Source: an uncultured bacterium
GTDB lineage: Bacteria > Hydrothermota > UBA3072
Direction: 5' to 3'
Length of the DNA: 64,000 nt
Assembly: GCA_964525555.1 (NCBI GenBank)
Contig: CAZGHN010000005.1
Span: forward strand, 20,515-84,514
How positions within the stretch are numbered: the stretch's first letter is position 1; every line of letters starts with the position of its first letter. The notes beneath the pieces were generated by a model, which was not told the origin of the DNA, searched no databases, and saw nothing but the letters and a program-made list of their open reading frames with translations. Below, in pieces: positions 8,112-46,703 of the stretch. A program made the translations under genes and the position numbers.

Positions 8112-8156
8112 TTCAATAACTATTGACTAAAAAGTAAAAATAAACTGTAGATTTAT

Positions 8157-10183: not shown

Positions 10184-10231
10184 AATATTAACAGGATTAG
10201 AGATTGAAATGTGAAATCCAAACATAGCCTC

Positions 10232-10426
10232 TAGTCGCAAGTCACCAGTCATTAGTCATTATATAGGTATTGGATACCGGGTACCAAATTCCGGAAGTAA
10301 ACTTCAATACCTACATGTTCTACATGTGAAAAATTGGTTGGTATGTAGGGTTTTTAAACAACTTTATTCTTTCCTTTGTGTCTATGTGCTCTTTGTGCGA
10401 GATTAATTTTTTTGGGGTAGGGTGGT
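10232..10426. repeat. Intergenic repeat mosaic
   Basis: tagtcgcaagtcaccagtcattagtcatt (7-mer), ctacatgttctacatgtg (9-mer), G-rich+ttttaaacaac linker, ctttgtgtctatgtgctctttgtgcgaga. Confidence 0.7.
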
Positions 10427-10506
10427 AGCCTTGACAAGCTTTGAAAATGTGTTACATATAACAAAAAATTTGTCAAAAATTTAATAATTCTAAAGGAGGA
10501 ATTGTT

Positions 10507-12654
10507 ATGGAAAATGTTTTCTGGTTTGTGCCCGGTGTTTCGGTTATAGCTCTTCTTTTCGCATGGGTTTTTTACTCGCAGATGATGAAAAAAGAAGAGG
10601 GAAATCCGAAGATGATTGAAATCGCAAATGCTATTAGAGAAGGAGCAATAAGTTTTTTAAAGGTTCAGGACAGTGTTGTGGCGATTTTTCTTGTAATAAT
10701 GGCTATTCTTTTTGCTGTTCTTGCTTTTGGGCTTGGAGTACAGTCTAAATGGATTCCCCTTGTTTTCTTACTTGGGGGATTTTTATCAGGTCTCTCAGGG
10801 TTTCTGGGGATGAAGACCGCAACAAAGGCTGCAGTCAGAGTAACAAACGCAGCCAGAGATTCTCTCGGTTCAGCTCTTAGTATCGCTTTCAGGAGCGGTT
10901 CAGTTATGGGTCTTTCGGTTGTTGGCTCATCTCTTCTTGGAATCTCTATATTGTTCGCAATATTTTATTTTGGGTTGAAATTACCTCTTGCCGAGGTTAC
11001 AAGTATTCTTCTCGGATTTGGCATCGGTGCGAGTTTTGTTGCTCTTTTTGCAAGAGTCGGAGGAGGAATTTATACTAAAGCTGCGGATGTAGGAGCAGAC
11101 CTTGTGGGTAAAGTCGAGGCCGGGATTCCTGAGGATGACCCCCGAAATCCGGCAACAATCGCGGATAATGTTGGTGATAATGTAGGAGATGTGGCAGGGA
11201 TGGGAGCCGATTTATATGAATCATATTCGGATGCGATTGTAGCTACTATGGCTCTTGGAGTTGCTGCGGGTCTTGGGATGAAAGGTGTCCTTGAACCCCT
11301 GCTTATTGCCGGTACCGGTATATTGTTCTCTATATTGGGAATTTTTCTCGTTAGAGCCGGAAAAGAAGCGACCCAGCATGGTCTTATTAAATCTCTTTCA
11401 AGAGGTATAAACTTTGCTATGATCGCTACGGGAATAGTTGCGATACTTGTGGTTAGATTCATTACTCCTGATAAGATGGGCGTGATTGGTTCTATTCTTG
11501 TAGGTCTTATAGCCGGTACTATTATAGGAAAAGCTACGGAGTTTTACACATCTTCTGCTTTTTCTCCTGTGCGTAAGCTTTCCGCTTCGGCAAAGTCAGG
11601 TCCTGCGACTTTGATAATCGACGGCCTGGCTCTGGGTCTTAATTCTACGGTTATTCCAGTTATAACGGTAGGGGTATCTATAATTCTCGCGTTTGCCTTC
11701 GCAGGAGGATTTAACAGTTTTATAATGGGTCTCTACGGTGTAGGACTCGCGGCTGTCGGTATGTTATCGACTCTCGGTATTACGCTTGCTTCGGACGCTT
11801 ATGGGCCAATTGCGGATAACGCGGGCGGAATAGCGGAGATGAGTGAACTCGGTAAAGAAGTGAGAACAAAGACAGATCAGCTCGATGCTCTCGGTAATAC
11901 AACCGCTGCGACAGGTAAGGGTTTTGCAATAGGTTCGGCTGCTTTTACCGCACTGGCTTTAATTGCTGCCTATTTGACCGAAATTAAAATGGCTTTGACA
12001 CGTTTGGGGGTAGAAGCTATTAATATTGGGGAACGAATGGTGAGTGTCAGCAGTGTTACTTTTCTCGAACTATCGGAATATTACAATTTAAGTCTTCTAA
12101 ATCCGACTCTTCTCGCTAGTCTTTTGATTGGTTCTGTTATTACTTTTCTTTTCTGCGGTATGACCATGAGTTCCGTAGGTGTTACTGCTCAGTCTGTAAT
12201 AGTTGAAGTAAGGGAACAATTTAAAGATAAAGATATACTTGCCGGCAAGAAAAAACCCGATTATGCGAGAACGGTGGCTATTGTTACCAAGGCTGCACAG
12301 AAACAGATGATTATCCCATCTTTGATAGCGATAGTCTCTCCGATTCTAATCGGTTGGATTTTCGGAGTTTCGGGTGTCGTTGGTTTTCTTGTAGGAGCAC
12401 TTGCTTCCGGATTTGCTATGGCTGTATTTATGGCTAACGCGGGCGGTGCTTTTGATAATGCGAAGAAATATATCGAGGAAGGAGCTCACGGCGGAAAGGG
12501 TTCAGAAGCTCACAAGGCAGGAGTTACAGGTGATACTCTCGGCGATCCGATGAAGGATACTTCAGGACCCTCACTTAATATTCTTATAAAGCTGATGAGT
12601 ATTCTTTCCGTTATTACCGCAGGGTTTGTTGTGGCTTTCAGCCTTTTTAAATAG
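10507..12654 (+). CDS. hppA: Membrane-bound K+-dependent (probably Na+-translocating) pyrophosphatase
   Basis: GGIYTKAADVGADLVGKVE, DNVGDNVGD, GNTTAA (Ala = K+-dependent type), GDTLGDPMKDTSGP. Confidence 0.95.
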   Translation: MENVFWFVPGVSVIALLFAWVFYSQMMKKEEGNPKMIEIANAIREGAISFLKVQDSVVAIFLVIMAILFAVLAFGLGVQSKWIPLVFLLGGFLSGLSGFLGMKTATKAAVRVTNAARDSLGSALSIAFRSGSVMGLSVVGSSLLGISILFAIFYFGLKLPLAEVTSILLGFGIGASFVALFARVGGGIYTKAADVGADLVGKVEAGIPEDDPRNPATIADNVGDNVGDVAGMGADLYESYSDAIVATMALGVAAGLGMKGVLEPLLIAGTGILFSILGIFLVRAGKEATQHGLIKSLSRGINFAMIATGIVAILVVRFITPDKMGVIGSILVGLIAGTIIGKATEFYTSSAFSPVRKLSASAKSGPATLIIDGLALGLNSTVIPVITVGVSIILAFAFAGGFNSFIMGLYGVGLAAVGMLSTLGITLASDAYGPIADNAGGIAEMSELGKEVRTKTDQLDALGNTTAATGKGFAIGSAAFTALALIAAYLTEIKMALTRLGVEAINIGERMVSVSSVTFLELSEYYNLSLLNPTLLASLLIGSVITFLFCGMTMSSVGVTAQSVIVEVREQFKDKDILAGKKKPDYARTVAIVTKAAQKQMIIPSLIAIVSPILIGWIFGVSGVVGFLVGALASGFAMAVFMANAGGAFDNAKKYIEEGAHGGKGSEAHKAGVTGDTLGDPMKDTSGPSLNILIKLMSILSVITAGFVVAFSLFK

Positions 12655-21684: not shown

Positions 21685-21707
21685 TTCTTTTGAGAAGAAT
21701 CAGTACA

Positions 21708-21835
21708 GTTGGATAGTTAAATTGTTGAATGGTAATATAGATCCTTCGGATCAGTTGAATGGTTGAATTGTTGAGTAGTTGAATAGCAAAAAAACAAAAA
21801 ATAAATTAGTGTTTATCCGTGTTAATCCGTGGCTA
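21708..21835. repeat. Intergenic repeat mosaic (8-mer GTTGAAT(A/G) run with embedded mini-hairpin, plus family A triad)
   Basis: gttgaatggtaatatagatccttcggatcagttgaatggttgaattgttgagtagttgaatag; attagtgtttatccgtgttaatccgtggcta. Confidence 0.85.
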
Positions 21836-21862
21836 TATTTTGGGACTGCTTGCCATGGATCT

Positions 21863-24289: not shown

Positions 24290-24364
24290 TTGTCCTCCTT
24301 GATATACCAATATAAGCATTTAAATTATTATTGTCAAGCTAACAGAGAAGCAAATATAAAAAAA

Positions 24365-24603
24365 CTTAGTTTCTTGGTGCCTTTGTGACTACTCTTTAGG
24401 ATTTCGGATTTAGGGCTTGAGATTTAAACAACAAAAATATTCTGCGTTCGTCTGCGTCATAACTCAAGATTTAGAATTTTGGGGTTGGGATTCCGTAAAC
24501 AAAAAAACTCTGTGTCTCCGTGGCTCTGTGCGAGGAAAATTTGGGGTTGGTGGGAGGATAGTTTTTAAAGCAAAAATATTTTTCTATCCTTGTAGATCTG
24601 TGG
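24365..24603. repeat. Intergenic repeat mosaic between divergent promoters
   Basis: cttagtttcttggtgcctttgtg; aggatttcggatttagggcttgagattt; 24441-24540 is an inverted copy of 18250-18352. Confidence 0.85.
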
Positions 24604-24633
24604 TCGACAAATAAGCTTTTTTACAAAAACCCC

Positions 24634-24661
24634 TTGACAAATTCCAAAATAAGGTTATAAT
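24634..24661 (+). promoter_or_regulatory. sigma70-type promoter of the lipid operon
   Basis: TTGACA-N16-TATAAT. Confidence 0.8.
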
Positions 24662-24767
24662 ACTTTATATGGCAAAGTTCTTTGTAAATTCTAGGAAAGA
24701 TATCTGCGAAGTGTGCTTGTGAAATAATTGTTGAATGTTATATTAATGGTTAGCGAGGAGGAACGAT

Positions 24768-26006
24768 ATGAGGAGAGTTGTGATAACAGGTATTGGAATA
24801 ATCTCTCCAAATGGTATCGGAAAGAAGGCTTTTTGGGAGTCTAACATAGAGGGTGAGTCGGGTGTTGGTATTATCGAAAAAATCAATACGTCGAAGTTGG
24901 AAACCAAAATTGCCGGTGAAGTCAAAAAATTTAATCCATCTTTATATATCGAAAAATCAAAAATAAAAATACTGGACCGTTTCGCGCAATTGGGGGTATC
25001 GTCGGCGAAAATGGCACTTGATGATTCTGCGCTTGAGCTTTATGAAATAAATCCCGAAAAGGTCGGAGTTTGTGTTGGTTCGGGGCTTGGTGGGGTTCTT
25101 TTTCATGAAGAGCAAATGATGGCTATGGATAAATACGGGCTAAGAAAAGCTAATCCAATGGGTGTCGTTAAAGTAATGCCCAATGCAATAAACTCTCATA
25201 TTTCGGTCGAGTTAGGATTAAAAGGACCGAATCTGACGATTTCTACAGCCTGTTCTTCGGGGGCGCATTCAATAGGTGAAGCGTTTAATCTGGTACGTTA
25301 TGGGAAGGCGGATGTTATGATAGCTGGTGGAGCAGAAGCTCCTTTAACACCTTTCACATTCAGTGCTTATAATTCTCTCCGGGTAATGTCCCGAAAGAAT
25401 GATTGTCCCGAAAAAGCTTCGCGTCCTTTCGATAAAGAAAGAGATGGTTTCGTTCTGTCGGAAGGAGCAGGTTTTATAATATTGGAAGAGATATCGCTTG
25501 CTCTTGCTAGGGGTGCAGATGTGTACTCCGAGGTAATAGGGTATGGAATGAACAGCAGTGCTTATCATATCGTTATCCCTAACCCGGAAGGCAAAGACAT
25601 GAGTGCAGTTATGAGATTGGCAATCGAAGATGCAGGAATTGAAAAGAGAGATATTGATTATATAAATGCACACGGTACCGCCACAAGGGCAAACGACCTT
25701 GCAGAGACAAAAGCTATAAAAGACGCTTTTGGAGATTACGCATATAAAATACCCATAAGTTCGACAAAATCTATGATAGGACACACTATAGGCGCGGCAG
25801 GAGCTATAGGAGTCATCGCTTCTGCTTTGGCTATCAAAAATGAGATAATACCACCAACAATAAATTATGAGAATCCAGACCCTGATTGTGACCTCGATTA
25901 TGTTCCTAATGTAGCCCGAGAAAGCAAGGTGAATACTGCCTTAATAAATTCATTTGGGTTTGGCGGCAGTAATGCTTCACTTGTAATTAAAAAATTTGAG
26001 AAATGA
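24768..26006 (+). CDS. fabF: Beta-ketoacyl-ACP synthase II
   Basis: STACSSG, SRPFDKERDGFV, INAHGT, KSMIGH, NSFGFGG (Cys-His-His triad). Confidence 0.93.
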   Translation: MRRVVITGIGIISPNGIGKKAFWESNIEGESGVGIIEKINTSKLETKIAGEVKKFNPSLYIEKSKIKILDRFAQLGVSSAKMALDDSALELYEINPEKVGVCVGSGLGGVLFHEEQMMAMDKYGLRKANPMGVVKVMPNAINSHISVELGLKGPNLTISTACSSGAHSIGEAFNLVRYGKADVMIAGGAEAPLTPFTFSAYNSLRVMSRKNDCPEKASRPFDKERDGFVLSEGAGFIILEEISLALARGADVYSEVIGYGMNSSAYHIVIPNPEGKDMSAVMRLAIEDAGIEKRDIDYINAHGTATRANDLAETKAIKDAFGDYAYKIPISSTKSMIGHTIGAAGAIGVIASALAIKNEIIPPTINYENPDPDCDLDYVPNVARESKVNTALINSFGFGGSNASLVIKKFEK

Positions 26007-26016
26007 GGGATTTGTT

Positions 26017-27450
26017 ATGAAAGACAAAAATAATGAAATTATAGATAAAATTAAGAAAATACTACTCGAGGCAGGAACAAATAAGGATATTGGTAAGGTA
26101 AAGATCGATTCAAAACTGGAAAGAGACCTGGGGATAGATTCTTTCGGCGCGCTCGAAGCACTATTTTCTCTGGAACAGGAATTCGGTATTACCATTTCGG
26201 ATAGGGATTTTTCTAAAGTTCGAACGGTACAGGATGTTATTAATTATATAGAGACGATATTAAAGGGAGAAAAATTCGAGGAAAATAAAAAGAGAAACTT
26301 CATTGAAAATCTCCATATAGATAAAAGCGAAGCCGATAAAATCAAATTTAATCCTTATTATAAATTAGTAGAGAGCAGTCTGGGCAGGGAGATATTAATA
26401 GAAGGCAAAAAATTGATATCTTTGGGCTCAAATGATTATCTGGGGCTTGCCAATGACGAAAAAATCAAAGAAGAAGCAAAACGAATATTAACGCAATATG
26501 GGATAAGTATGTGCGGTACACCGATAGTCGTGGGTCAAACGGATGTCAATAGAAAATTAGAAGTCAAAATAGCAGAATTTTTAAAACAGGAAGACGCAAT
26601 TATATTTCCATCGGGATTCCAGGCGAATATAGGAGTTTTTAAAACTCTATGTGATTCTGAGGATATAGTAATTGCGGATAAATCCGCCCACTCTTCTTTG
26701 ATTGAGGGAGCACTTATGTCCAATGCGTCCCTAAGATTCTTCCCTTTCAATGATACTTCTGCCCTGGAAGAAATCCTTAAAGTTTCCCAGGATTATAGGA
26801 TGAGATTTATAGTAGTAGAAGGATTATATAGTACGGAAGGTGCAAGTACTCCTCTTGACATAGTAAGCAAATTAGCCAAAGAATACAATGCTTTTATTAT
26901 TCTGGACGATGCTCACGGAGTGGGAGTTCTGGGTAGGGAAGGAAGGGGGGTTATGGAGAAATATGATATTTTCGATGTTGATTTGATTTCGGGTTCTTTA
27001 GGAAAAGCGATTGGCTGCTTCGGCGGTTTCCTGGCAGGAAAGGAAAAAATAATAGACTTTTTTAGATACAGACTCTCTTCTTATATCTATTCTACGGCGC
27101 TACCTCCTTCTGTTGCGGCTGGATGTTTATGTGCCATAGATTTAATCCCAAATTTATCCGAAAGACGTGACAGAATAAAAAATTATAAAGAAAAGCTTTA
27201 TACGGCTTTAAATAATATGGGATATAATCTGACAAATTCGACATCCCCTCTTTTCTCCTTATTATTTGAGGATACAGGTGAAACTCTAAAAATGACAAAA
27301 GCTTTATTTGAAAGAGGTGTTTACGGAACTCCTTTTCTTCCTCCAAGTGTTCCGAAAGAGTCCCCGAGAATCAGGCTTATCCCTAACGCCAAATTAGAGG
27401 AAGAAGATATAGAAAAAGTTATAGATGTCTTTGACGAATTAAAGGTTTAG
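26017..27450 (+). CDS. Acyl carrier protein fused to a PLP-dependent alpha-oxoamine synthase (serine palmitoyltransferase/BioF-like)
   Basis: N-terminal DLGIDSF...LEQEFGITI ACP; GSNDYLGLA, AHSSL, DDAHG.G, GSLGKA (PLP Lys), STALPP. Confidence 0.88.
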   Translation: MKDKNNEIIDKIKKILLEAGTNKDIGKVKIDSKLERDLGIDSFGALEALFSLEQEFGITISDRDFSKVRTVQDVINYIETILKGEKFEENKKRNFIENLHIDKSEADKIKFNPYYKLVESSLGREILIEGKKLISLGSNDYLGLANDEKIKEEAKRILTQYGISMCGTPIVVGQTDVNRKLEVKIAEFLKQEDAIIFPSGFQANIGVFKTLCDSEDIVIADKSAHSSLIEGALMSNASLRFFPFNDTSALEEILKVSQDYRMRFIVVEGLYSTEGASTPLDIVSKLAKEYNAFIILDDAHGVGVLGREGRGVMEKYDIFDVDLISGSLGKAIGCFGGFLAGKEKIIDFFRYRLSSYIYSTALPPSVAAGCLCAIDLIPNLSERRDRIKNYKEKLYTALNNMGYNLTNSTSPLFSLLFEDTGETLKMTKALFERGVYGTPFLPPSVPKESPRIRLIPNAKLEEEDIEKVIDVFDELKV

Positions 27451-27454
27451 ATCT

Positions 27455-28411
27455 ATGAAATATTTTCTCATTTATAATCCCACATCGAAACAGGGAAGAA
27501 GCAAAAAGAAATGGAAAAGAATTCTTCATTTGTTTGAGAAAGAAAAAGTAAATTTTGATTTTAGAATTACACAAAAAGAAGACGACGCTACATATTTGGC
27601 TTCTAAAGCGGCAGATGAAGGCTGGAATGTTGTCGTAAGTGTGGGAGGAGACGGTACAATAAGTGAGATAATAACCGGACTTTTTGAGACGGAAGGGTTA
27701 AAAAAGAGACCTAAATTGGGAGTTTTGCATGTGGGGACAAGTCCTGATTTTAACCGATATCATTGTATCCCTACCTATATAGAAGATGCTGTAGCGACTA
27801 TATTCAAGGGTAAAACGAAATTAGTCGACATAGGGAAAGTTACATATTCGATAAATAATAATGAAATACCTTTAGAGATGTTACCGATTCATCCCGATAG
27901 GAGAGTATCTTATTTCGGCAGTAATGTTAATATCGGTTTGGGTCCGAAGATAGCGTCTAAGGCAAACGGAAGGTTTAGAAAATTTTTAGGAGATTTTTGC
28001 GGAACATTGTTAGCAACGGTTGTTTCCATTTCAAATCTCAAAGGTTTTAATCTGACCATAAGTATAGATGGGGAAGAAAAAATTTTTTCTAATATAATAA
28101 ATTTAACAATAGGGAAAGATCCATTTCTCGCTTCCGGTATGAGAGTCTTTAGTGAGATTAAACCGGATGATGGAAGATTTTATGTTTTCAGCGTTAAAAA
28201 AACTTCTCTTGTGAATCTTTTATTGAATGTACCACGTGTTTACTGGGGAGATTTTTTGAAATACAAAGGCGCAGACCTTGAATACTGTGAAGAAATCGAA
28301 GTAAAATATAATAAAAAATATCCGGAGTTAGAGTTTGACGGAGACGCAAAGGGTTACCTGCCAGCTAAGATAAACTTATTACACAAGGCGCTGGAAGTGA
28401 TTATACCCTAA
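27455..28411 (+). CDS. Diacylglycerol/sphingosine kinase family lipid kinase (YegS/BmrU-like)
   Basis: IYNP.S, VGGDGT.SE, GTSPDF, VDIG, DDG, EFDGD. Confidence 0.85.
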   Translation: MKYFLIYNPTSKQGRSKKKWKRILHLFEKEKVNFDFRITQKEDDATYLASKAADEGWNVVVSVGGDGTISEIITGLFETEGLKKRPKLGVLHVGTSPDFNRYHCIPTYIEDAVATIFKGKTKLVDIGKVTYSINNNEIPLEMLPIHPDRRVSYFGSNVNIGLGPKIASKANGRFRKFLGDFCGTLLATVVSISNLKGFNLTISIDGEEKIFSNIINLTIGKDPFLASGMRVFSEIKPDDGRFYVFSVKKTSLVNLLLNVPRVYWGDFLKYKGADLEYCEEIEVKYNKKYPELEFDGDAKGYLPAKINLLHKALEVIIP

Positions 28412-28414
28412 ATT

Positions 28415-29443
28415 ATGAAAACGATATTTGTTACGGGAGGGGCCGGCTTTATAGGCAGTCATTTAATACGGGAATTAACAAAGAAAGATTACAGGGTTAA
28501 AGCTTTAACCAGGAGCGGCAGCAATCTTCGATTTATCTCAAGGTATGATTTCGATATAGTAAAAGGCGATATAAGAAACTTAAAAGAAGTTGAAAGCGCG
28601 ATGGAAGATTGTGATATTGTTGTTCATCTGGCAGCATTGGTTCGTGATTGGGGCAGGAAAAAGGATTTTTACGATATCAATGTAGGTGGTACGAAAAATA
28701 TTCTAAAAGCAGTCGATAAAAACAAAATTAAATTTTTAATTTACCTTAGCACTAACGCGGTTCTGGGCGAAGACGATTGTTCTGCGCCTAAAGATGAAAA
28801 TTCTCCTTATAAGGCAAGGTACCCGTATTTTTTATCTGACTTCTGGGAATCAGATATGAATCATTACCGCTGTTCCAAGATGGAGGCTGAGAAAACGGCT
28901 ATTTCCTTTTGTCGAGAAAAAGGTATAAAGCTTACTGTTCTAAGACCTGTCTGGGTGTACGGACCGAGAGAATTTCACTCGGGTCCTTATTATTTCTGCA
29001 AATATATTTCAGGTAATTTACGACTTTTGCCAGGCTGCAGAACGAATAAATTTCATGTAATATATGTTAAAGATCTGGTAAAAATTATTACAAAGGTCTT
29101 GAAGAATTCGCCGGAAGGAACAAATATATACAACGTCGGCTCACAATATGTGCCGACGATGGACGAGTTCTGGAAGCTTTTTTGCAAATATCTAAAAGTT
29201 AACCCTCCTATCTATTTACCAAAATTTCTGACCTATCCGCTTGGATTTCTGACGGAAGCGTTGTACAAACTATTTAGAATGAAAAATGCTCCGTCATTAA
29301 CTCGAGCCAGAGTGTCGATGGGATATTGTAATAACATTTACGATGTATACAAAGTTAAAAGAGAAATAGGTTTTAAGGAAACCCCTTTAGAAAAAGGAAT
29401 TAAAACCACCGTACGATGGTGGAGGAGGAATGGGTTTTTATGA
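28415..29443 (+). CDS. Extended SDR, NAD-dependent epimerase/3-beta-HSD-like reductase
   Basis: TGGAGFIGS, HLAA, NVGGT, YRCSK..AE (YxxxK), RPVWVYGP. Confidence 0.9.
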   Translation: MKTIFVTGGAGFIGSHLIRELTKKDYRVKALTRSGSNLRFISRYDFDIVKGDIRNLKEVESAMEDCDIVVHLAALVRDWGRKKDFYDINVGGTKNILKAVDKNKIKFLIYLSTNAVLGEDDCSAPKDENSPYKARYPYFLSDFWESDMNHYRCSKMEAEKTAISFCREKGIKLTVLRPVWVYGPREFHSGPYYFCKYISGNLRLLPGCRTNKFHVIYVKDLVKIITKVLKNSPEGTNIYNVGSQYVPTMDEFWKLFCKYLKVNPPIYLPKFLTYPLGFLTEALYKLFRMKNAPSLTRARVSMGYCNNIYDVYKVKREIGFKETPLEKGIKTTVRWWRRNGFL

Positions 29444-30732
29444 AAATCAAGCCTATTACAGGAATAAAAAGAGTTTTCTTTAATAGTTATTTAACCATTT
29501 ATATTTTCTTAAGATATACTCGTTTTTTGTTGTTGAGGCAGATATCTTTTAAACAGTATGTGCTATTCTTTAAAAGAATGATATTGCTCCAGATGCGTTT
29601 CAGACATAATAAATTTATCAGGATAGGTAACGTTTATAAATTACATCTTTATCTACCTGCTTTTCCTTCGCCGGCATTTTTCCACGCATTAAAGAGATTT
29701 CTGATGCTTAAGGGAGAACCTTCGTCGGTTTCCGTTCTACTCTCGGTCACAAAAGCCTGTACTTACAATTGTCCTCACTGTTACCAGAAAACAGATACAG
29801 GCTCGGAGTTATCGGTCGATAGGTTGATCGAGGTCGCAAAAAATATGCAGAATCTTGGGATATCGTTTTTTAATATTGAAGGAGGAGAACCTTTATTAAA
29901 ATTCGATAGGCTGATAAAACTTGTCGGCAGTTTGGATGAAAGAGCAGAGGTCTGGGTAAATACTAATGGTTTTGGTTTAACCTATAAAAAAGCAAAGAAG
30001 ATGAAAGAAGCAGGTGTTTTCGGCGTTATGATTTCCGTTCATCATTGGGACAGAATAAAATTTGATAGATTCGTCGGAAAAGAAGGAGCTTTCGACGCTG
30101 CCATTTTGGCTCTCGAAGTTTTCAGGGAAGCTGGTATAGCTACGGCAATAAATTGCTGTCCGACTAAGGAAACTATCGAGGACGGTGGGATCGAAAAAAT
30201 AATGAAATTGGCAAAAGACTATGGTTGCAGCTATGTACAGTTAATACACGGAAAACCCGCGGGAGGGTGGTTGGGTAGAGAGGATCCTTTGAAAGATGAG
30301 ACTATAAAGAAAATGGCACGTTCCCATACCCTGTTTAACAAACATTTTAAATACAGAAATTATCCCGCCATGTCATCTCAGGTTTTTGAATCTTTAAAAG
30401 AAAACTTCGGATGTACAGCGGGCGGCATTGAAAGATTTTACCTCAATCACCATGGTGAGGTTCAACCTTGTGAGTTTACGAATGTTTCTTTTGGAAATGT
30501 CCAGGATGAAGTTTTTTTGGTTATCTACAAAAGAATGAAAAGTTATTTTCAAAAACCCGGAACAAACTGGCTTTGTTGTACCGAAGCGAAAAAAATAGAG
30601 AAAGCTATACTAGCACAGAAAGAAAGGAAGGTTCCTCTGCCCAAGGAAAAAACAATTTCCATTGTTAAAGATTGGGATTTGGGAGAAGAAACACCACTTT
30701 ATAAAAAAATGGGACTTTATGGAAAAGAGTAA
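29440..30732 (+). CDS. Radical SAM protein with SPASM/twitch-like C-terminus
   Basis: CTYNCPHC, GGEP, TNG, CTAGG...Y....G.VQPC; ATGA overlap with SDR stop. Confidence 0.9.
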   Translation: MKIKPITGIKRVFFNSYLTIYIFLRYTRFLLLRQISFKQYVLFFKRMILLQMRFRHNKFIRIGNVYKLHLYLPAFPSPAFFHALKRFLMLKGEPSSVSVLLSVTKACTYNCPHCYQKTDTGSELSVDRLIEVAKNMQNLGISFFNIEGGEPLLKFDRLIKLVGSLDERAEVWVNTNGFGLTYKKAKKMKEAGVFGVMISVHHWDRIKFDRFVGKEGAFDAAILALEVFREAGIATAINCCPTKETIEDGGIEKIMKLAKDYGCSYVQLIHGKPAGGWLGREDPLKDETIKKMARSHTLFNKHFKYRNYPAMSSQVFESLKENFGCTAGGIERFYLNHHGEVQPCEFTNVSFGNVQDEVFLVIYKRMKSYFQKPGTNWLCCTEAKKIEKAILAQKERKVPLPKEKTISIVKDWDLGEETPLYKKMGLYGKE

Positions 30733-31669
30733 GTTCATACGGGCTTATATTAAATCTATGAGACCGTACCTTTTTTTCGCTACCGGTATAGCAGGATGGT
30801 TGGGAATCGTTTTTTCGGGAACGGAAGTAAATATTCTTAGGAAGTTCCTGGTACTGGTTCTTTTGTTCGCAAGCTGGGGGATAAATCAGATTGTGAATGA
30901 TTACCTGGGTATAAAAGAAGATAGAATAAATGCACCTAACAGGCCGATGGTTTCAGGAGAATTAAATATTAAATACGCTCTCATAACTACTTTTATTCTT
31001 TTCGTTGTGGGCGCAGTTATTTCCTATGTTTTGAATCCGTATGCTCTAATAGTCTATCTGATCGGTTATGTTTTTAACATTTTGTACGAATATTTAAAAG
31101 CTGTTCCGCTTTTAGGGAATATCTGGTTTGGAATACTTTTAAGTGTGTGTCCTTTTTATGGTGCGTTAGCTGTTAGTAAACAAACTTTATTTATAGTGTT
31201 TGCCAATAAAGATTTAGTATTCGTGTCTTTGTTTGTAGCGTTAATGTTCTCTACTATGACATTCTTTACTTACTATAAAGATTATATCGGCGATAAGAAA
31301 ATAGGAAAAAAGACTCTGGTTGTCTTATTGTCTCCGGAAAAAGCCAGATATTTAAATTTACCAATGGCTTTTATTCCTTATATAGCTCTCTTTACTGTTC
31401 TATACTTTAAATTGTGGCAACCGGATAATAATAACTGGTTTTTCATTCTAAACGGTATTTCTTTTCTTTTGATTTTTTATACGGCTCTTTTATTATTTCG
31501 GTATCCAGGAGGAGAAAAGGCTGCCGGTTCATTAAAATGGAATTTTTCAGGTACTGTGTTGTTTGAAACTTCATTTATCGCGTTGGTAAATCCATTGCTG
31601 TCGATTGTTTTGTTTGTCATGGGCTTCCTATTCGTTTATTATCTGTTTATTTTTCTTCAAATAGAATAA
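30719..31669 (+). CDS. UbiA-family membrane prenyltransferase (DGGGP synthase/ChlG-like)
   Basis: KSMRP, NDYLGIKEDRIN.PNRP..SG, Y..LK..P..GN, KDY.GD...GKKT; about 8-9 TM. Confidence 0.85.
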   Translation: MEKSKFIRAYIKSMRPYLFFATGIAGWLGIVFSGTEVNILRKFLVLVLLFASWGINQIVNDYLGIKEDRINAPNRPMVSGELNIKYALITTFILFVVGAVISYVLNPYALIVYLIGYVFNILYEYLKAVPLLGNIWFGILLSVCPFYGALAVSKQTLFIVFANKDLVFVSLFVALMFSTMTFFTYYKDYIGDKKIGKKTLVVLLSPEKARYLNLPMAFIPYIALFTVLYFKLWQPDNNNWFFILNGISFLLIFYTALLLFRYPGGEKAAGSLKWNFSGTVLFETSFIALVNPLLSIVLFVMGFLFVYYLFIFLQIE

Positions 31670-31674
31670 TTATA

Positions 31675-31703
31675 TTGACATATTATGATTTTTAGCGTAT
31701 AAT
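31675..31703 (+). promoter_or_regulatory. sigma70-type promoter
   Basis: TTGACA-N17-TATAAT. Confidence 0.8.
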
Positions 31704-31736: not shown

Positions 31737-32135
31737 ATGGAAAAGGAGAGGTATTATAAAGTCTTATTTATCATCGCGGGTTTATATGATTTTGTACTGG
31801 GCTTCGGGTTTTGCTTTTTCTATAAATGGTTACACGCGCATGTTCTTTTAAGACAATTGCCGGATCCCCCCATATATTTTCAGGTTTGCGCGGCTTTCAT
31901 AGGAATGATAGGAATAGGATATTTCCTGGTCTGGAAGAACCTTTATAGAAATGTAGATCTCGTTAAAATTGGTACCGGTATGAAGATTATCTATATACTG
32001 GGAGCAATATTGTTTTCTACTTATGCGGTTGTTCCTCTGGCTCTTGTTGTTTTCGGGATACTTGACGTTGTATTTATAATTGCGTTTGTAGAGTTCTTAA
32101 GATACGCAAAAGTTAGCGGAAGGATACCGGTTTAG
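31737..32135 (+). CDS. Small 4-TM hypothetical membrane protein
   Basis: AAGGAGG RBS, own promoter, four hydrophobic helices. Confidence 0.8.
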   Translation: MEKERYYKVLFIIAGLYDFVLGFGFCFFYKWLHAHVLLRQLPDPPIYFQVCAAFIGMIGIGYFLVWKNLYRNVDLVKIGTGMKIIYILGAILFSTYAVVPLALVVFGILDVVFIIAFVEFLRYAKVSGRIPV

Positions 32136-32157
32136 GTTTAAATTAGTAAAGTTAAAA

Positions 32158-32358
32158 AGCTGACGACTTACCGTCGAGGGCCAACGGTAAAAAAAATAGG
32201 CTATTGATGTGATTTTTTGTTGGAATAAGCTCTTAGCTTCTCGCCTTTGGCAGTTAGAAAAAAAATATTAAAACTTTGTGGTCTTTGTGTGAGTTAAAAA
32301 AAGCTGACCGCCGACAGCTGACGGCAAAAAATCTCTGTGTTCTCTGTGTCTCTGTGGC
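32158..32358. repeat. Intergenic repeat mosaic between convergent genes
   Basis: gctgacgacttaccgtcgagggccaacgg; ctttgtggtctttgtgtgag; gctgaccgccgacagctgacggc-aaaaaat-ctctgtgttctctgtgtctctgtggc. Confidence 0.8.
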
Positions 32359-32368
32359 AGAATCGATA

Positions 32369-33232
32369 TTAAAGTTCAATCCCTTCAACCGAAAACGGAT
32401 GAGGAGACCATGTTTTTTTATGCAGGATATAAACTTCTTTATATCCGATAGAATTTAGTAATAAAGCTGCTTCCTTAAATTTTGCGGTTATCTGTTCCGG
32501 AGAGTGCGCATCCGAACATAGAGTTATGGGGATGCGCATATTGTAAGCTTCCTCGATAATCCAGTTGCTTGGATATAAAGAATCCGTTTTGCCTCTTGCG
32601 ATTCCTCCGGTATTCACCTCTAAAATTGAATGTGATTTGGCAATAGTGTTCAAGGTATCGAGAACAGTTTCTTTGTACCAGTTTTCTTCTTCGGAGAAGT
32701 ATTTTCCCCCTTTATTGTTCATTTTGATCAAATCAAGATGTGCTATAATGTCGGGATTCTCTAATCTCAACATCTCTCTGATTAATTTGTAATAATCTCC
32801 CACAACCTTTTTTATGTTTCCTTTGTAGATTTCGTCTAGTCCTTTTTCGAAGTCTTCTTCGCTTTCATCGATTGCCCATCCTATATTTTTATCGAAAAAG
32901 TTAACGAAATGTACGGACCCTATTGAGAAATCCAGTTTAGAGAAATCTATTCCTTCTTTGTAGAAAGAGTTTAAATTGGGTAAGAAATCCATCTCCAGTC
33001 CGAGAAGTATTCTGATCTTATCTTTGTATTTTTCCGAAAGCTTGAGAACGGTTTTACAGTATTCTTTGTAATCTTTCTTTTTTATAACCCAATCTACTGA
33101 GAAAGGCAGAGGGTTGTGTGGGCTGAAACCTAGAATAGCGACATCCTGTTTTAAGGCTTCCTCGACGTATTCCTCCAGCATTGCATTTCCGTCATCGAAA
33201 TTTGAATGAGTATGAAAATTAACCCAGCTCAT
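32369..33232 (-). CDS. PHP-family histidinol-phosphatase (HisJ/HisK-like)
   Basis: FHTHS.F.DG, GLEMD, GSVH, AHLDL, EVNTGG, SDAH. Confidence 0.88.
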   Translation of the reverse strand: MSWVNFHTHSNFDDGNAMLEEYVEEALKQDVAILGFSPHNPLPFSVDWVIKKKDYKEYCKTVLKLSEKYKDKIRILLGLEMDFLPNLNSFYKEGIDFSKLDFSIGSVHFVNFFDKNIGWAIDESEEDFEKGLDEIYKGNIKKVVGDYYKLIREMLRLENPDIIAHLDLIKMNNKGGKYFSEEENWYKETVLDTLNTIAKSHSILEVNTGGIARGKTDSLYPSNWIIEEAYNMRIPITLCSDAHSPEQITAKFKEAALLLNSIGYKEVYILHKKTWSPHPFSVEGIEL

Positions 33233-33280: not shown

Positions 33281-33394
33281 GGCCACAGATTTGCACAGAT
33301 ATGCACGGATTTCCCATCCCTACCCCATTTTATATTTTTTTTGAAATTATAAAAGTATTTTTGATCTGTGTTCATCCGTGTTTATCCGTGGCTA
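33281..33394. repeat. Inverted pair of 10-bp triad repeats (family A)
   Basis: ggccacagatttgcacagatatgcacggat (33281-33310) faces atctgtgttcatccgtgtttatccgtggcta (33364-33394). Confidence 0.88.
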
Positions 33395-33403
33395 TTTCTT
33401 TTT

Positions 33404-34567: not shown

Positions 34568-34805
34568 AACCACAAAGGCACAAAGACACGAAGAATAAAA
34601 AAAAAGTTAAATGGTCAAATTGTTGAATGGTTAAATCGGCATCCCCCATACCACCAAATTATTAGCCACTGATTTACACGGATATACACTGATTTTTTTA
34701 TTGTTTTTTTTACTTGGACACTGGAATCCTCGAACCCTTGAGCCGTAAATTTAATGAACAACAAATTATTATTTTATCTGTGATTATCCGGGTTGATCCT
34801 TGGCT
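34568..34805. repeat. Intergenic repeat mosaic with family A inverted pair
   Basis: aaccacaaaggcacaaagacacgaag; gttaaatggtcaaattgttgaatggttaaat; tagccactgatttacacggatatacactgat (34663-34693) faces atctgtgattatccgggttgatccttggct (34776-34805). Confidence 0.82.
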
Positions 34806-35884
34806 CTTTCCTTTTTTTTCGCTAATTCTTTCAACTCCGAGTAATGTTCAAATAGTGAACATGCAAGTTTTTCTCTCTGTAGTAATTCTCCTCTTTCCCG
34901 GATTGCTTTTAGAAAAGGAGACTCGCAGGCTGCTTTTAAGCCCCCTTTTCTAATATTTTCAATGGAGATATTTATAAACGGACAGGGTTCGATTCCTCCT
35001 TCGGAATTAATGTGTAAAGATTGAATTCCGGCAGCTGTACAACGATTGTTTTCGCCGTATTCATCCTGCGGGAATTGAACCAGCACAATTGGTTTTCTAT
35101 TTCTGAAATCCAGGATTTTTTCTCGAAAAGCTTTTCTCTCCTCTTCACTTAAAACCCAATCTAATTTTGGATCTGGTCCGCAGGGTACGTATTCCGTAAA
35201 ATATCCGATAGAACATCCGAGTTTTACCATACTGTCTATAAATGCATCGTTTCCAAGTAATTTTGAATTTTCGGAAGTATTTGTTGCCGCAAAACCAAAA
35301 CATGCGCCGGCATTTCGCAAATTTTTCATTGCCCGAAGAGCTATCTGATAAGACCCTTTTTTTCTTCTGTTGTCAGTGTGTTTCTCGAAGCCTTCTATGC
35401 TGACAAGTTGGATTATGTTTCCGCTTTTCCGGATACGTTTGGTAAGTTCCGGAGTTATCTTTGAGCCATTTGTTATTGGAACAAAAAGAAGTCTCTTGTG
35501 TTTCTCCATATGTTCGATTGTGTCACTTCGAAGGTATGGTTCTCCGCCCGTAACTACTACAGAAAGTACCCCAAGGTCTTCTGCTTCATCAAAAAGAGAA
35601 TCAAGCTCTTCTGTTGAAAGCTCGTTATCTGATTTTCTGTCTCTTGAATAGCAGCCTCTGCAATTATAATTACATCTCATTGTCGGACTGATTGCTATCA
35701 CAGCAGGGATATTGCCTTTTATTGTCTTTTGTTTCTTTTCTCTTCTTCTTTTCGCAAGTAAAAGCCTTGTGCCGACTTTTAAGAAAAAAAGCATTCTTTT
35801 GGGACTGGAACGCCCCCACATCCATATTGCCAAGCGCACAAAATCGCCAATTCCATTTTCTCTTAATTTTATGTTTTTGTTCAA
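34784..35884 (-). CDS. Radical SAM/SPASM-like protein
   Basis: SPTMRCNYNCRGCY, TGGEP, TNG, CTAAG..SLHIN.EG.IEPCPF. Confidence 0.9.
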   Translation of the reverse strand: MNKNIKLRENGIGDFVRLAIWMWGRSSPKRMLFFLKVGTRLLLAKRRREKKQKTIKGNIPAVIAISPTMRCNYNCRGCYSRDRKSDNELSTEELDSLFDEAEDLGVLSVVVTGGEPYLRSDTIEHMEKHKRLLFVPITNGSKITPELTKRIRKSGNIIQLVSIEGFEKHTDNRRKKGSYQIALRAMKNLRNAGACFGFAATNTSENSKLLGNDAFIDSMVKLGCSIGYFTEYVPCGPDPKLDWVLSEEERKAFREKILDFRNRKPIVLVQFPQDEYGENNRCTAAGIQSLHINSEGGIEPCPFINISIENIRKGGLKAACESPFLKAIRERGELLQREKLACSLFEHYSELKELAKKKERAKDQPG

Positions 35885-43800: not shown

Positions 43801-44676
43801 TTATTTTTCTATCTTCTTTAATAGCTGTTTCCAATCTTCTTCGACGTTTTTTTGTATAAGGGAAATGTCTTTTTCTTTTAAATGTTTGAATCTTCCCTGT
43901 AGTTTTAAATATTCGGAAATAGGTTTTACTTTAGCAAATTTTTTAGTTAATCTCCATTTTGAGCCATTTTCTATTTCTATTAAAGGAAAAAGATTGCTCT
44001 GTACGGCAAGTCGTGCCAACTTTACTGTTAATTGAGGAGGATATTTCCATCCGGTCGGACAGGGTGAAAAGATAAGTATAAAGCGCATGCCTTCGATATC
44101 CTTAGCTTTTTTGAATTTCTCTATCATGTCTTCAGGATAAGCAATAGAAGCTGTCGCTATATATGGAATCCGGTGAGCCGCCATTATTGAAATAATGTCT
44201 TTCTTCTGGCTTGTTTTCGGACGATCCACAGGAGTAGTAGTAGTCCAGGCTTTAATTGGAGTTGCGCTGCTTCGCTGGACACCCGTATTCATATAAGCCT
44301 CATTATCATAGCATACGTATATCATGTCGTCATTTCGTTCAGCTGCACCTGAAAGTGTCCCAAGTCCTATATCATATGTGCCTCCGTCTCCTGCCCAGGC
44401 AACGACGTTGGGTTTTTTACCAATTATTTCGAATGCTGCTCTTATTCCGGAAGCAGTAGATGCGGCAGTTGCAAAAGCTGCGTGGAAAAGAGGAACATTC
44501 ACCGACGAATATGGAAATGGTCCGTCTATTACAGTCCAACAGCATGCCGGTATTGTAAGGACTGTGTTTCTACCCAGAGCTTTAAGTGCATGTCTCATTG
44601 CGATATTTCCACCGCATCCCTGGCAGGCGACATTCCCACAGCTCATTATTTCTTCTTGCGGTATTTTTAATTTCAT
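43801..44676 (-). CDS. porB: 2-oxoacid:ferredoxin oxidoreductase beta subunit (POR/VOR family)
   Basis: AC.GCG, GDGGT.DIG, DNEAYMNTG.QRSS.TP, SPCPTGW. Confidence 0.9.
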   Translation of the reverse strand: MKLKIPQEEIMSCGNVACQGCGGNIAMRHALKALGRNTVLTIPACCWTVIDGPFPYSSVNVPLFHAAFATAASTASGIRAAFEIIGKKPNVVAWAGDGGTYDIGLGTLSGAAERNDDMIYVCYDNEAYMNTGVQRSSATPIKAWTTTTPVDRPKTSQKKDIISIMAAHRIPYIATASIAYPEDMIEKFKKAKDIEGMRFILIFSPCPTGWKYPPQLTVKLARLAVQSNLFPLIEIENGSKWRLTKKFAKVKPISEYLKLQGRFKHLKEKDISLIQKNVEEDWKQLLKKIEK

Positions 44677-45827
44677 ATCTTCAAACCTTTCCAGATAATA
44701 TCCGATTTAGGCTTTTTCATTTTTTTAACTTCTTCATAAATTTCGATTATATTTTTACTTGTGACATCCCGTCCGCCGAGCCCAGCTATTACTCCGAATA
44801 TCGGAGGAGAATCTTTTTCGTTGTACATTGCAGCTTTAATTTCTTGAAAGAATATCCCGGAAGCTCCGAATCCGATATTCCTATCTATAACAACAGCTTT
44901 ATCGACCGAGCTTAAAATCTTACGTACTTTTTCTGCAGGAAAGGGTCTGAAGACCCGTATTCGTAGTAAACCGACTTTTTCTCCTTTTTCCCGCAGTATA
45001 TCTATTGATTTTCTTGCTGTGGAAGCAATAGTTGCTGAGGAAATTATAAGATTTTTCGCATCGCGAGTTCTGTATGTTTCTACAAGACCATATTTACGGC
45101 CAAATATTTTTTCGAATTCTTCTCCTGTTTCTTCCCATCTGTTAAGAGCTTTTTCCATAGCTTTTTGGATTTTATATCTGAGTTCATAATAATTATCAGC
45201 AGTGGTCAGGCCCCCGAAAGTATGGGGGTCATCAGGGTCGAGCTTGTATTCTCTTTCGTAAGGTGGAAGAAATTTATCGACTTTTTCCTGTTCCGGTATT
45301 TCAATTGCTTCAGAGGTGTGCGAAAGAACAAAAGCAGCCAGGATTACCATTGCAGGTAACTCAACAGATTCGGCAACTTTATAAGCTTGGATGACCGAGT
45401 CCAGAACTTCCTGATTATTCTGTGCGTAAACTTGCATCCAACCTGTATCTCTCTGTGAAAGAGAATCGTTCTGTTCCGTCCATATAGACCATGGTGGGGC
45501 AAAAGCCCGATTTATATTGCCCATTACTACAGGAGTTCTGGCGCCTACAGCCCAATGTAGCATTTCGTGCATAAGGGCAGTTCCCTGTGATGATGAAGCA
45601 GTAAATGTCCTAACTCCCGCAGCAGAAGCCCCTATAAGTGAAGCCATAGCGGAGTGTTCGGATTCTACTTTGATAAATTTAGCATTAAGTTCTCCCGATG
45701 CGCACATTTCGGATAGAAGCTCTACAACTTCAGTTTGTGGTGTTATCGGATATGCCGATATTACCTGAGCTCGGGAGAGTTTAGCCCCGTAAGATAAGGC
45801 ATGGTTGCCCATTAAGACTTTTCTCAA
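44673..45827 (-). CDS. porA: 2-oxoacid:ferredoxin oxidoreductase alpha subunit
   Basis: AYPITPQT, VESEHSA, SSQG.ALMHE, GLGGRD; probable TTG start overlapping the porD stop. Confidence 0.9.
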   Translation of the reverse strand: MRKVLMGNHALSYGAKLSRAQVISAYPITPQTEVVELLSEMCASGELNAKFIKVESEHSAMASLIGASAAGVRTFTASSSQGTALMHEMLHWAVGARTPVVMGNINRAFAPPWSIWTEQNDSLSQRDTGWMQVYAQNNQEVLDSVIQAYKVAESVELPAMVILAAFVLSHTSEAIEIPEQEKVDKFLPPYEREYKLDPDDPHTFGGLTTADNYYELRYKIQKAMEKALNRWEETGEEFEKIFGRKYGLVETYRTRDAKNLIISSATIASTARKSIDILREKGEKVGLLRIRVFRPFPAEKVRKILSSVDKAVVIDRNIGFGASGIFFQEIKAAMYNEKDSPPIFGVIAGLGGRDVTSKNIIEIYEEVKKMKKPKSDIIWKGLKI

Positions 45828-46147
45828 TTTTCTTCCTCTTCGATATCTATGGCTCCCGAGGGGCATTCTTCCCAACAAATACCGCAGCCCTTGCAGTATT
45901 CATAATTGATTACGGGTTGTTTTATTTCTTCTTTATCTTTTTTCTTTGTTTTTTTTAGCTTTATAGCGCCTTCAGGACAAAATTTCCAGCAGATCAAGCA
46001 ATCAGTACACTTATCGTAGTCTATTATTGGGCGAAAGTTCCGCCAGCTTCCGGTTTTATTATATTCCATTGAAGAGAAGGAAATTGCCGAAGAGGGAAGA
46101 TCCTTTTCTTTTTTGTAAATAATTATTTTGTAAGATTTTTTTGCCAA
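45824..46147 (-). CDS. porD: 2-oxoacid:ferredoxin oxidoreductase delta subunit (2x[4Fe-4S])
   Basis: KTGSWR..RP, CTDCLICW..CP, YCKGCGIC.EECP. Confidence 0.9.
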   Translation of the reverse strand: MAKKSYKIIIYKKEKDLPSSAISFSSMEYNKTGSWRNFRPIIDYDKCTDCLICWKFCPEGAIKLKKTKKKDKEEIKQPVINYEYCKGCGICWEECPSGAIDIEEEEN

Positions 46148-46150
46148 TTT

Positions 46151-46699: not shown

Positions 46700-46703
46700 T
46701 TGA

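Follow-up and report, generated by a model that had tools for sequence, protein, structure and literature searches.

A conserved, mobile seven-gene module of lipid-type enzymes in a Hydrothermota bacterium, and its candidate product, an isoprenoid-sphingoid phosphate

The stretch of DNA analyzed here (64,000 nucleotides of contig CAZGHN010000005.1, assembly GCA_964525555.1, hereafter the window) comes from an uncultured bacterium of the phylum Hydrothermota (UBA3072) and carries a gene cluster that constitutes a new, conserved and mobile lipid-type module. Its enzymes belong to known families: a FabF-type ketosynthase (KS), an acyl carrier protein (ACP) fused to an alpha-oxoamine synthase (AOS), a lipid kinase, an extended short-chain dehydrogenase/reductase (SDR), a radical S-adenosylmethionine enzyme (rSAM) and a UbiA prenyltransferase. 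The AOS represents a new clade, the UbiA protein a subfamily with an altered motif, and the rSAM an uncharacterized lipid-associated family. The original prediction, made from the letters and open reading frames (ORFs) alone, had described a six-gene operon that may build a hybrid sphingoid-isoprenoid lipid. Its six ORFs (24768-31669, all on the + strand) were found at the same coordinates with the named domains when analyzed with Pfam and NCBIfam, while its six-gene extent had to be revised: the unit comprises seven genes, the seventh (orf7) being a co-conserved membrane-protein gene at 31737-32135. Tentatively, and with slightly less than even confidence, we propose that modules of the type found in the window (type A below) are a widespread, self-contained biosynthesis of a non-glycerol membrane lipid, an isoprenoid-sphingoid phosphate. 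The earlier interpretation is partly supported, by gene co-conservation, by a synthase distinct from BioF and by a UbiA protein nearest to digeranylgeranylglyceryl phosphate synthase (DGGGPS); it is the best available interpretation, and an unproven one.

The grouping of these genes is far beyond chance. In a genome from another family of the same phylum (G015), the order AOS-kinase-SDR-rSAM-UbiA-orf7 occurs at 41-61% identity, without fabF and ACP. An Omnitrophota metagenome-assembled genome (MAG; L011) keeps the order FabF-ACP::AOS-kinase-SDR-UbiA at 36-53% identity, and its full-length rSAM orthologue (39% identity) lies on another contig. In Desulfosporosinus sp. BRH_c37 (L012), all six families stand together in a cluster that reads helix-turn-helix regulator (HTH)-UbiA-Old Yellow Enzyme (OYE)-ACP-AOS-kinase-AIRS (PurM-like)-KS-SDR-rSAM/SPASM, and a Spirochaetes MAG (L013) has all but the KS, in the order UbiA-OYE-AOS-kinase-AIRS-SDR-rSAM. 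A homologue of the UbiA protein (P0244) also comes from Desulfosporosinus orientis DSM 765. Other cluster-bearing sources are named as Desulfobacterales, Kiritimatiellales, Calditrichia and DPANN/CPR-labelled MAGs. A profile scan of genome contigs with the AOS alignment recovered the module in three of the 80 loci listed (L011-L013), together with many generic AOS patterns.

To cover metagenomes, a scan was anchored on the UbiA subfamily (38-sequence alignment), and partner families were sought by tblastn in the resulting 80 loci. At least one partner family was present in 71 of them; the nine partnerless loci consist of eight contigs of 2.1 kb or less and one in which the UbiA gene lies at the contig end. 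Among the 35 loci of at least 9 kb, AOS and the kinase each occur in 30, rSAM in 28, SDR and KS each in 25, OYE in 22, AIRS in 19 and orf7 in nine. The same set emerged, without bias, when 759 ORFs from 84 sources were clustered all against all (UbiA in 73 sources, rSAM 46, AOS 37, kinase 36, SDR 34, OYE 27, KS 25, AIRS 22, orf7 16, ACP 11 and HTH 9), and beyond these 11 families none was found in more than three of the 84 sources. Co-conservation, on which the original prediction had made itself depend, thus extends across phyla. Three architectures can be distinguished: type A, as in the window, KS-ACP::AOS-kinase-SDR-rSAM-UbiA-orf7, with an A' form without KS and ACP; type B, UbiA-OYE-(ACP)-AOS-kinase-AIRS-KS-SDR-rSAM; and type C, UbiA-rSAM-kinase-AIRS-OYE-AOS. 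Among the 80 metagenome loci, orf7 (14 loci) and OYE/AIRS (40 loci) are mutually exclusive.

Members of the set are also joined to one another by natural gene fusions. The ACP and AOS are fused in the window and in L143; AOS and kinase form a single 764-aa frame in L149; SDR and rSAM form a single 805-aa frame in L163 and are fused in P0369 as well; and UbiA is fused to rSAM in P0374 and P0375. The fused UbiA domains keep the start of motif 1 (NQxxND), with Asp (P0374) or Asn (P0375) at its central position. The profile of the rSAM family matched 545 representatives at E 1e-30 or better, and Pfam was run on six long proteins taken from the best 150. L158, a further candidate for a UbiA::rSAM fusion, was rejected: its UbiA match lies in another frame and Pfam sees the rSAM alone.

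Within the genus, the 8.0 kb block that runs from fabF to orf7, with intergenic repeats at either end, is present in some genomes and absent from others. In the same-genus genome G025, which has no AOS match at E 1e-20 or better, the orthologues of both cluster-flanking genes, a DUF3160/type IX secretion system (T9SS) protein and a HisJ-type PHP phosphatase (each 81% identical), are directly adjacent and form an empty site. Because of this adjacency, we conclude that the whole 8 kb unit, orf7 included, was gained or lost in one piece. In a BLASTN comparison of the window with G025, homology stops at 24344 and restarts at 32370; between these points G025 has 272 bp of short repeats, of the same kind as those on both sides of the cluster in the window, and 32270-32291 is an exact 22-nt match to the empty site. 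The neighbouring DUF3160 protein carries a T9SS sorting domain. The flanking mosaics of the original prediction therefore do bound the unit in the form of short repeats, but the same repeats are found at other intergenic sites nearby. Short GT-rich motifs (GTGTTTATCCGTG, CTCTGTGTCTCCGTGGC) recur in many intergenic regions (21700-21850, 24345-24633, 32136-32369, 33350-33400 and 34600-34820); such repeats, which also fill the 272-bp empty site of G025, may be the recombination substrate for cluster gain or loss.

An AOS orthologue (83-89% identity) is present in four of the 14 other genomes of the genus, with the cluster syntenic at 77-92% identity, and the other ten have no AOS match at E 1e-20 or better. 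In the phylum as a whole, six of the 201 genomes sampled, counting this one, have a close AOS orthologue, the sixth being G015 (54%); the remaining AOS matches are generic, at 38% identity or less.

The genes are tightly coupled, as originally described (Table 1): the intergenic gaps are 10 nt (fabF-AOS), 4 nt (AOS-kinase) and 3 nt (kinase-SDR), the SDR stop and rSAM start share an ATGA overlap, and rSAM and UbiA overlap by 14 nt. The likely AOS start is ATG 26017, 10 nt past the fabF stop and preceded by a GAGGG Shine-Dalgarno sequence; that of rSAM is ATG 29440, with GGAGGAGG upstream; and that of UbiA is ATG 30719, the same start as in the L105 orthologue. The single promoter of the original prediction is present as a perfect site ahead of fabF, and a second perfect site precedes the seventh gene. 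Overall, the window holds no excess of promoter-like sites (30 found, against 25.2 +/- 4.5 in shuffles), and only these two, matching at 12/12 positions, stand out.

Table 1. Coordinates of the module and its boundaries in the 64,000-nucleotide window
Feature	Position	Strand	Remarks
Left boundary, intergenic short repeats including CTCTGTGTCTCCGTGGC at 24508	24345-24633		repeat family D6
Promoter-like site, sigma-70-type TTGACA-16-TATAAT	24634-24661	+	perfect 12/12
fabF paralogue, dedicated beta-ketoacyl-ACP synthase II	24768-26006	+	412 aa, TIGR03150
ACP::AOS fusion	26017-27450, open frame from TTG 25996	+	PP-binding and Aminotran_1_2
YegS/BmrU/DgkB-type lipid kinase	27455-28411	+	318 aa, DAGK_cat and YegS_C, TIGR00147
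Extended SDR (NAD-dependent epimerase/dehydratase/3-beta-HSD type), probable lipid ketoreductase	28415-29443	+	PF01370, 144 bits
rSAM, SPASM/twitch-type	29440-30732, open frame from 29416	+	PF04055
UbiA prenyltransferase, distinct DGGGPS-like subfamily	30719-31669, open frame from 30662	+	316 aa, PF01040
Second promoter-like site, TTGACA-17-TATAAT	31675-31703	+	perfect 12/12, ahead of seventh gene
Seventh gene (orf7), four-helix membrane protein	31737-32135	+	132 aa, family-less, co-conserved
Right boundary, intergenic short repeats including CTCTGTGTCTCTGTGGC at 32342	32136-32369		repeats and G025 empty-site comparison

The ketosynthase scores 547.1 bits against TIGR03150, above the cut-off of 493.75. 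A second fabF on contig C4 (G000:C4:160417) reaches 616 bits and is likely the housekeeping copy. In the ACP::AOS protein, Pfam places the PP-binding domain, with its GIDS serine, at residues 32-85 and Aminotran_1_2 at 139-478 (167 bits). Residues H232, D304, D305, H307 and K337 of the AOS are invariant in 25 relatives; the lysine that binds pyridoxal 5'-phosphate (PLP) and the His/Asp/His set are present, a feature common to all AOS enzymes that does not discriminate between subfamilies. The top NCBIfam match is the bioF model TIGR00858, at 335.8 bits below its cut-off of 426.45, and the Kbl models are missed as well (NF005394, 312.7 against 460; TIGR01822, 257 against 493). The best solved relatives are KBL (7v58, 216 bits), Sphingobacterium serine palmitoyltransferase (SPT; 8guh/3a2b, 205 bits) and AONS (176 bits), above the cysteate-C-fatty acyltransferase 28eh (157.7 bits) in the same search. 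In a quick maximum-likelihood tree of 58 sequences (IQ-TREE; midpoint-rooted, references labelled by NCBIfam, without ALAS, CqsA and CapB), the AOS proteins of types A and B form one clade (SH-aLRT 100), apart from the SPT/SPT-like side (95) and from BioF plus Kbl (84), and those of type C fall on the SPT side. The synthase thus does not group with BioF, in line with the original prediction: it has its own clade and misses every NCBIfam equivalog cut-off.

In this genome (94% complete) no other AOS was found, bioB does not rise above its cut-off (best 35 bits against 225) and bioD has no match. Since the bioF cut-off is missed, no bioB lies above its cut-off and bioD has no match, biotin synthesis is excluded as the role of the AOS. 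Elsewhere in the window, a FabH-type ketoacyl-ACP synthase III (46704-47786, - strand) lies beside three genes for 2-oxoacid:ferredoxin oxidoreductase subunits (block 43801-47786), a set that could supply branched or odd fatty-acid starter units. Genes for POR-type subunits likewise stand beside the Omnitrophota cluster (L011:15787-18117).

The kinase reaches 132.6 bits against TIGR00147 (cut-off 118.65) and 98.7 bits against DAGK_cat, its translation contains a GGDGT loop, and its nearest solved structure is DgkB (2qv7). The translation of the SDR shows the GxxGxxG and YxxxK motifs, and its best NCBIfam matches, HpnA and the OleD-type 2-alkyl-3-oxoalkanoate reductase, are both under cut-off. 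The kinase cut-off and the proximity to DgkB, the nearness of the SDR to OleD and HpnA, and that of UbiA to DGGGPS together suggest a lipid character for the module.

The product of orf7 has no Pfam or NCBIfam match. AlphaFold2 models it as a four-helix bundle (pLDDT 85.6), for which a fold search returned no PDB match at E 0.001 or better. The gene follows UbiA in same-genus contigs, adjoins it on the opposite strand in G015, and stands beside it, on either strand, in 14 of the 80 metagenome loci. In the Protein Atlas, orf7 fell only into unnamed 'hypothetical protein' clusters, and the rSAM only into generic rSAM/SPASM clusters.

The rSAM combines a helical N-terminal extension of about 100 aa with a C-terminal cysteine set of the SPASM/twitch type, and C115, C119 and C122 (CxxxCxxC) as well as C333, C352 and C387 are invariant in 30 orthologues. 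PF13186 (SPASM) is found in the L012 and L013 orthologues; it is not detected in the window protein at 1e-3. The AlphaFold2 model (pLDDT 92.7) has as its fold neighbours SkfB (Z 25.4), SuiB (23.0), viperin (22.7), BlsE (22.1), PqqE (22.0) and anSME (21.3). The lipid enzyme GDGT-MAS (7tom) ranks 11th at Z 18.6, below SkfB and other peptide or nucleotide enzymes, and shows no sequence match to the rSAM at E 1e-3 or better. These neighbours are the general SPASM/twitch group, with no lipid-specific one prominent, and they indicate nothing specific about the reaction.

Among more distant members of the rSAM family, P0477 fuses a PlsC-type glycerolipid acyltransferase to the rSAM, P0487 a class I methyltransferase, and in P0371 the rSAM is followed by about 1000 further residues including DUF362. 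A second radical SAM/SPASM protein in the window (34784-35884, - strand; 366 aa) is NirJ/AhbD-like and under all cut-offs; its gene adjoins ychF, 2.6 kb downstream and outside the gained or lost unit.

The UbiA protein is a clear family member (PF01040, 112.6 bits against a gathering score of 34.2) whose best PDB match is the DGGGPS of M. jannaschii (MjDGGGPS, 6m31; E 8e-16). The DGGGPS type assigned to it originally thus stands as far as the nearest structure goes, but not at the level of equivalogs, whose cut-offs are all missed (PRK12883, 93.2 against 353; PRK12882, 79.6 against 296; PRK12884, 98.4 against 269), nor in the canonical first motif, which is altered. Motif 1 of the subfamily reads NQxxNDxLGxxED, with Gly, invariant in 38 of 38 members, in place of the central Asp of canonical NDxxDxxxD; the window protein has NDYLGIKED, and the Glu before the last Asp occurs in at least 90% of the members. 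Motif 2 (KDxxGDxxxGxxT) is intact, with D188 and D192 invariant.

The same genome encodes a DGGGPS-like UbiA paralogue (C10:13197-14048, L106) with a canonical NDYFDVATD motif, which scores 166 bits, below cut-off, and a geranylgeranylglyceryl phosphate synthase (GGGPS; C13:12115-12834, L113) above the TIGR01769 and NF003198 cut-offs, whose nearest named homologues are all from 'candidate division WOR-3' (61-77% identity). Going by these source names and by the T9SS sorting domain of the DUF3160 protein, the genome is probably that of a WOR-3 (FCB-group) sediment bacterium. With a GGGPS and a separate DGGGPS-like UbiA, the bacterium may also make archaeal-type ether lipids. A search with PF13685 for glycerol-1-phosphate dehydrogenase gave weak matches only, from a family that also matches 13 of 14 control genomes. 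Prenyl diphosphates can be supplied by a farnesyl diphosphate synthase, which scores above cut-off, and by another polyprenyl synthase. Genes of the UbiA family number five in this genome.

Several other genes were noted around related clusters. On L134, a 768,753-base contig, neither AOS nor SDR is encoded within 10 kb of a reduced kinase-rSAM-UbiA-orf7 set (7715-11404); the backbone genes may be located elsewhere, or the amino-alcohol may come from outside the cell. The Omnitrophota MAG encodes, immediately upstream of fabF (L011:7216-8718), a 500-aa hydrophobic protein that belongs to no Pfam family and recurs in only two sources; that it is a diverged rSAM was ruled out (BLASTP E 0.83). 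Two genes upstream of the Desulfosporosinus cluster, an ORF (L012:5135-6004) matches PF07737 (ATLF domain) at 179 bits and looks unrelated to the lipid module.

For the type A module, we propose the following route. The dedicated FabF and the ACP domain would make or extend a long acyl chain and deliver it to the PLP-dependent AOS domain, which would carry out a decarboxylative condensation with an amino acid, most likely serine, to give a 2-amino-3-keto long-chain base. The DgkB-like kinase would phosphorylate the hydroxyl of this long-chain base and the extended SDR would reduce its 3-ketone. By analogy with DGGGP synthase, which uses geranylgeranylglyceryl phosphate (GGGP), the DGGGPS-like UbiA might then transfer an isoprenoid from a prenyl diphosphate to the neighbouring N or O of the single-chain lipid phosphate. 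The resulting two-tailed isoprenoid-sphingoid phosphate would stand in for the missing ceramide synthase step. The SPASM/twitch rSAM, which in some organisms is fused to the SDR or to UbiA, would subsequently alter an unactivated position of the lipid, and the four-helix membrane protein would be an accessory of the type A cluster. The argument for serine is that the AOS and kinase genes are neighbours in types A and B and a single frame in L149, and that no amino-ketone other than one derived from serine or threonine bears a hydroxyl before reduction. That several phyla share a pathway in which a DGGGPS-derived enzyme places an archaeal-style isoprenoid on a phosphorylated sphingoid-type amino-alcohol made with bacterial fatty-acid machinery, with the rSAM cross-linking or functionalizing the product, so that a third backbone chemistry for membrane lipids results, is possible but rather doubtful.

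A number of observations count against this proposal. The AOS lies outside the SPT clade and far below the SPT equivalog cut-offs (NF047600, 290.1 against 640; NF047599, 271.2 against 500; NF047603, 202.2 against 670), and the tree that places it is quick, midpoint-rooted and free of ALAS, CqsA and CapB references. Serine as its substrate is a guess that draws indirect backing from the order of the genes and from the joining of AOS and kinase in L149; for the use of serine with a long-chain acyl thioester, the AOS::kinase and ACP fusions are likewise indirect hints. Relatives can do without FabF and ACP, as the G015 version shows, and related clusters add an OYE-type flavoprotein and a PurM/ThiL-like ATP enzyme; these additional genes of types B and C hint at diphosphate formation or enone reduction, which would be superfluous in the simple scheme. 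The invariant Gly of UbiA indicates a subfamily that is not ordinary DGGGPS and may bind a different diphosphate, and N-prenylation by a UbiA enzyme has no known precedent. The distribution is patchy: the cluster is in five of the 15 genomes of the genus (this one included) and six of the 201 from the phylum, and in the phylum of the Omnitrophota record an AOS at E 1e-100 or better occurs in one of 251 genomes, the query's own. A bulk lipid and an accessory metabolite would fit such patchiness equally well. The sequences establish the gene set, its co-conservation and fusions, its gain or loss as a unit, the family placements and the altered UbiA motif. All of the chemistry is inferred, from the amino acid used and the order of the reactions to the length of the prenyl chain, the atom that accepts it and what the rSAM does, and the final product is predicted.

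Three other explanations were weighed. An unlikely one is that the module makes a specialized low-abundance metabolite, such as a signal, an antibiotic or a pigment precursor, instead of a membrane lipid. The KS and ACP::AOS would then act like PigJ/PigH, joining a beta-ketoacyl-ACP to an amino acid en route to a heterocycle, which UbiA would C- or O-prenylate and the rSAM would tailor. The adjacency of a KS and an ACP::AOS is indeed the PigJ/PigH arrangement, and there is a weak PigJ match; yet this match reaches 80 bits where the cut-off is 900, the ketosynthase scores as a true fabF equivalog, and the complete versions in G015 and L013 are without KS and ACP, so beta-ketoacyl chemistry cannot be the core. 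The patchy accessory spread as a mobile unit, the HTH regulator heading Desulfosporosinus-type clusters (9 sources), and the OYE and PurM-like enzymes of related clusters, which suit heterocycle or enone chemistry, agree with such a metabolite. The lipid kinase, above its family cut-off and universal in the module (30 of the 35 long loci), has no role in this scheme, however, and the unbiased clustering of 84 sources revealed no recurrent transporter, NRPS/PKS or resistance gene.

We consider it quite improbable that the phosphate instead serves as a leaving group, the kinase and the PurM/ThiL-like enzyme turning a serine-derived hydroxyl into a phosphate or diphosphate. Elimination would then yield an amino-enone, reduced by OYE in related clusters, or the diphosphate would become the UbiA donor, so that the amino-lipid is the transferred group and not the acceptor. 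The AOS-kinase-AIRS order is conserved in 19 of the 35 long loci, L149 encodes AOS and kinase in one frame, no AIRS-type cluster is without OYE, and ThiL, of the PurM family, phosphorylates a phosphate. UbiA enzymes, moreover, always cleave a diphosphate substrate, and the diphosphate-binding motif of this subfamily is altered by its invariant Gly. A non-allylic primary diphosphate is nonetheless a poor UbiA donor, and the window type has neither AIRS nor OYE (an OYE homologue is missing from its genome, where the only AIRS relative is a weak one at 28.6% identity), which makes the shared core independent of a diphosphate. As for chance neighbours, namely a housekeeping BioF for biotin, FabF for fatty acids and DGGGPS for ether lipids, this explanation is barely credible. 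In its favour, bioF is the top NCBIfam match of the AOS (336 bits) and GGGPS is above cut-off in the genome; against it, that score falls short of the bioF cut-off (426), bioB stays under its own cut-off and bioD has no match, the genome carries a higher-scoring fabF and a UbiA more like DGGGPS outside the cluster, ten of the 14 other same-genus genomes have no AOS match at E 1e-20 or better, and the set is conserved across phyla with members fused to one another. On the co-conservation data, both a BioF/biotin role and chance juxtaposition were rejected.

The proposed synthesis of an isoprenoid-sphingoid phosphate resembles several known systems in part. The bacterial ceramide pathway uses an Spt with its own ACP, bCerS and CerR, and Caulobacter has the ceramide kinase CpgB. 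The cluster shares with bacterial sphingolipid synthesis an AOS with a dedicated ACP, an extended-SDR ketoreductase and a lipid kinase of the diacylglycerol kinase fold, and, in our proposal, the addition of a second chain to an amino-keto base. It differs in an AOS that forms its own clade and misses the SPT cut-offs, in the fusion of ACP to AOS and in its dedicated FabF. The absence of a GNAT-like ceramide synthase, stated in the original prediction, holds for all cluster proteins analyzed with Pfam; UbiA and rSAM take its place. The archaeal-type ether-lipid pathway is approached by the UbiA, nearest to DGGGPS (6m31; PRK12883/12884 matches), and by the proposed single-chain lipid phosphate acceptor, which would be like GGGP. 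In the cluster, however, the UbiA falls below the DGGGPS cut-offs and has its central Asp replaced by Gly, its partners would build an amino-alcohol and not a glycerol phosphate backbone, and the GGGPS (C13) and the more DGGGPS-like UbiA (C10, 166 bits) of the genome lie away from it.

The prodiginine pair PigJ/PigH (RedX/RedN-type) likewise places a ketosynthase next to an ACP-fused AOS. Besides the PigJ score of 80 against 900, the cluster differs from it in having one ACP domain and not two, in that KS and ACP are dispensable in relatives, and in having a lipid kinase, SDR, rSAM and UbiA and no pyrrole-pathway genes. In sulfonolipid (capnine) synthesis, too, an AOS joins a fatty acyl thioester to an amino acid that is neither Gly nor Ala, and the ketone is then reduced; the cluster differs in lacking a cysteate synthase, and capnine synthesis is not known to involve a kinase, UbiA or rSAM.

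The enzyme families are all known, whereas their fixed combination is undescribed in the literature searched. Full-text searches, which did not extend to subscription-only papers and supplements, found no description of it, in keeping with the original statement that it matched no recognized pathway. Part of the account by Villanueva et al. (2021, PMC7852524) places GGGPS and DGGGPS in FCB-group bacteria and allows that bacterial UbiA homologues may have other functions. Ding et al. (2024, PMC11334938) describe Spt-like genes in anaerobes, for example in 33 Cloacimonadota MAGs where neither bCerS nor CerR is close by, and raise the possibility that non-homologous enzymes replace bCerS and CerR. 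The module is a concrete candidate for a replacement of this kind, though its AOS belongs to a different clade.

The related module of Desulfosporosinus species possibly makes the proposal testable in culture. If it is correct, the altered-motif UbiA subfamily and the lipid-associated rSAM family would acquire new functions, and several phyla would build lipids with two chains, a fatty and an isoprenoid one, on a backbone of amino-alcohol phosphate, and would do so without a ceramide synthase. Such bacteria would be an unrecognized source of nitrogen-bearing isoprenoid lipids and of new biomarker lipids in anoxic sediments. The finding would also bear on the debate over the 'lipid divide', across which a 'sphingo-isoprenoid' lipid would be a molecular hybrid.

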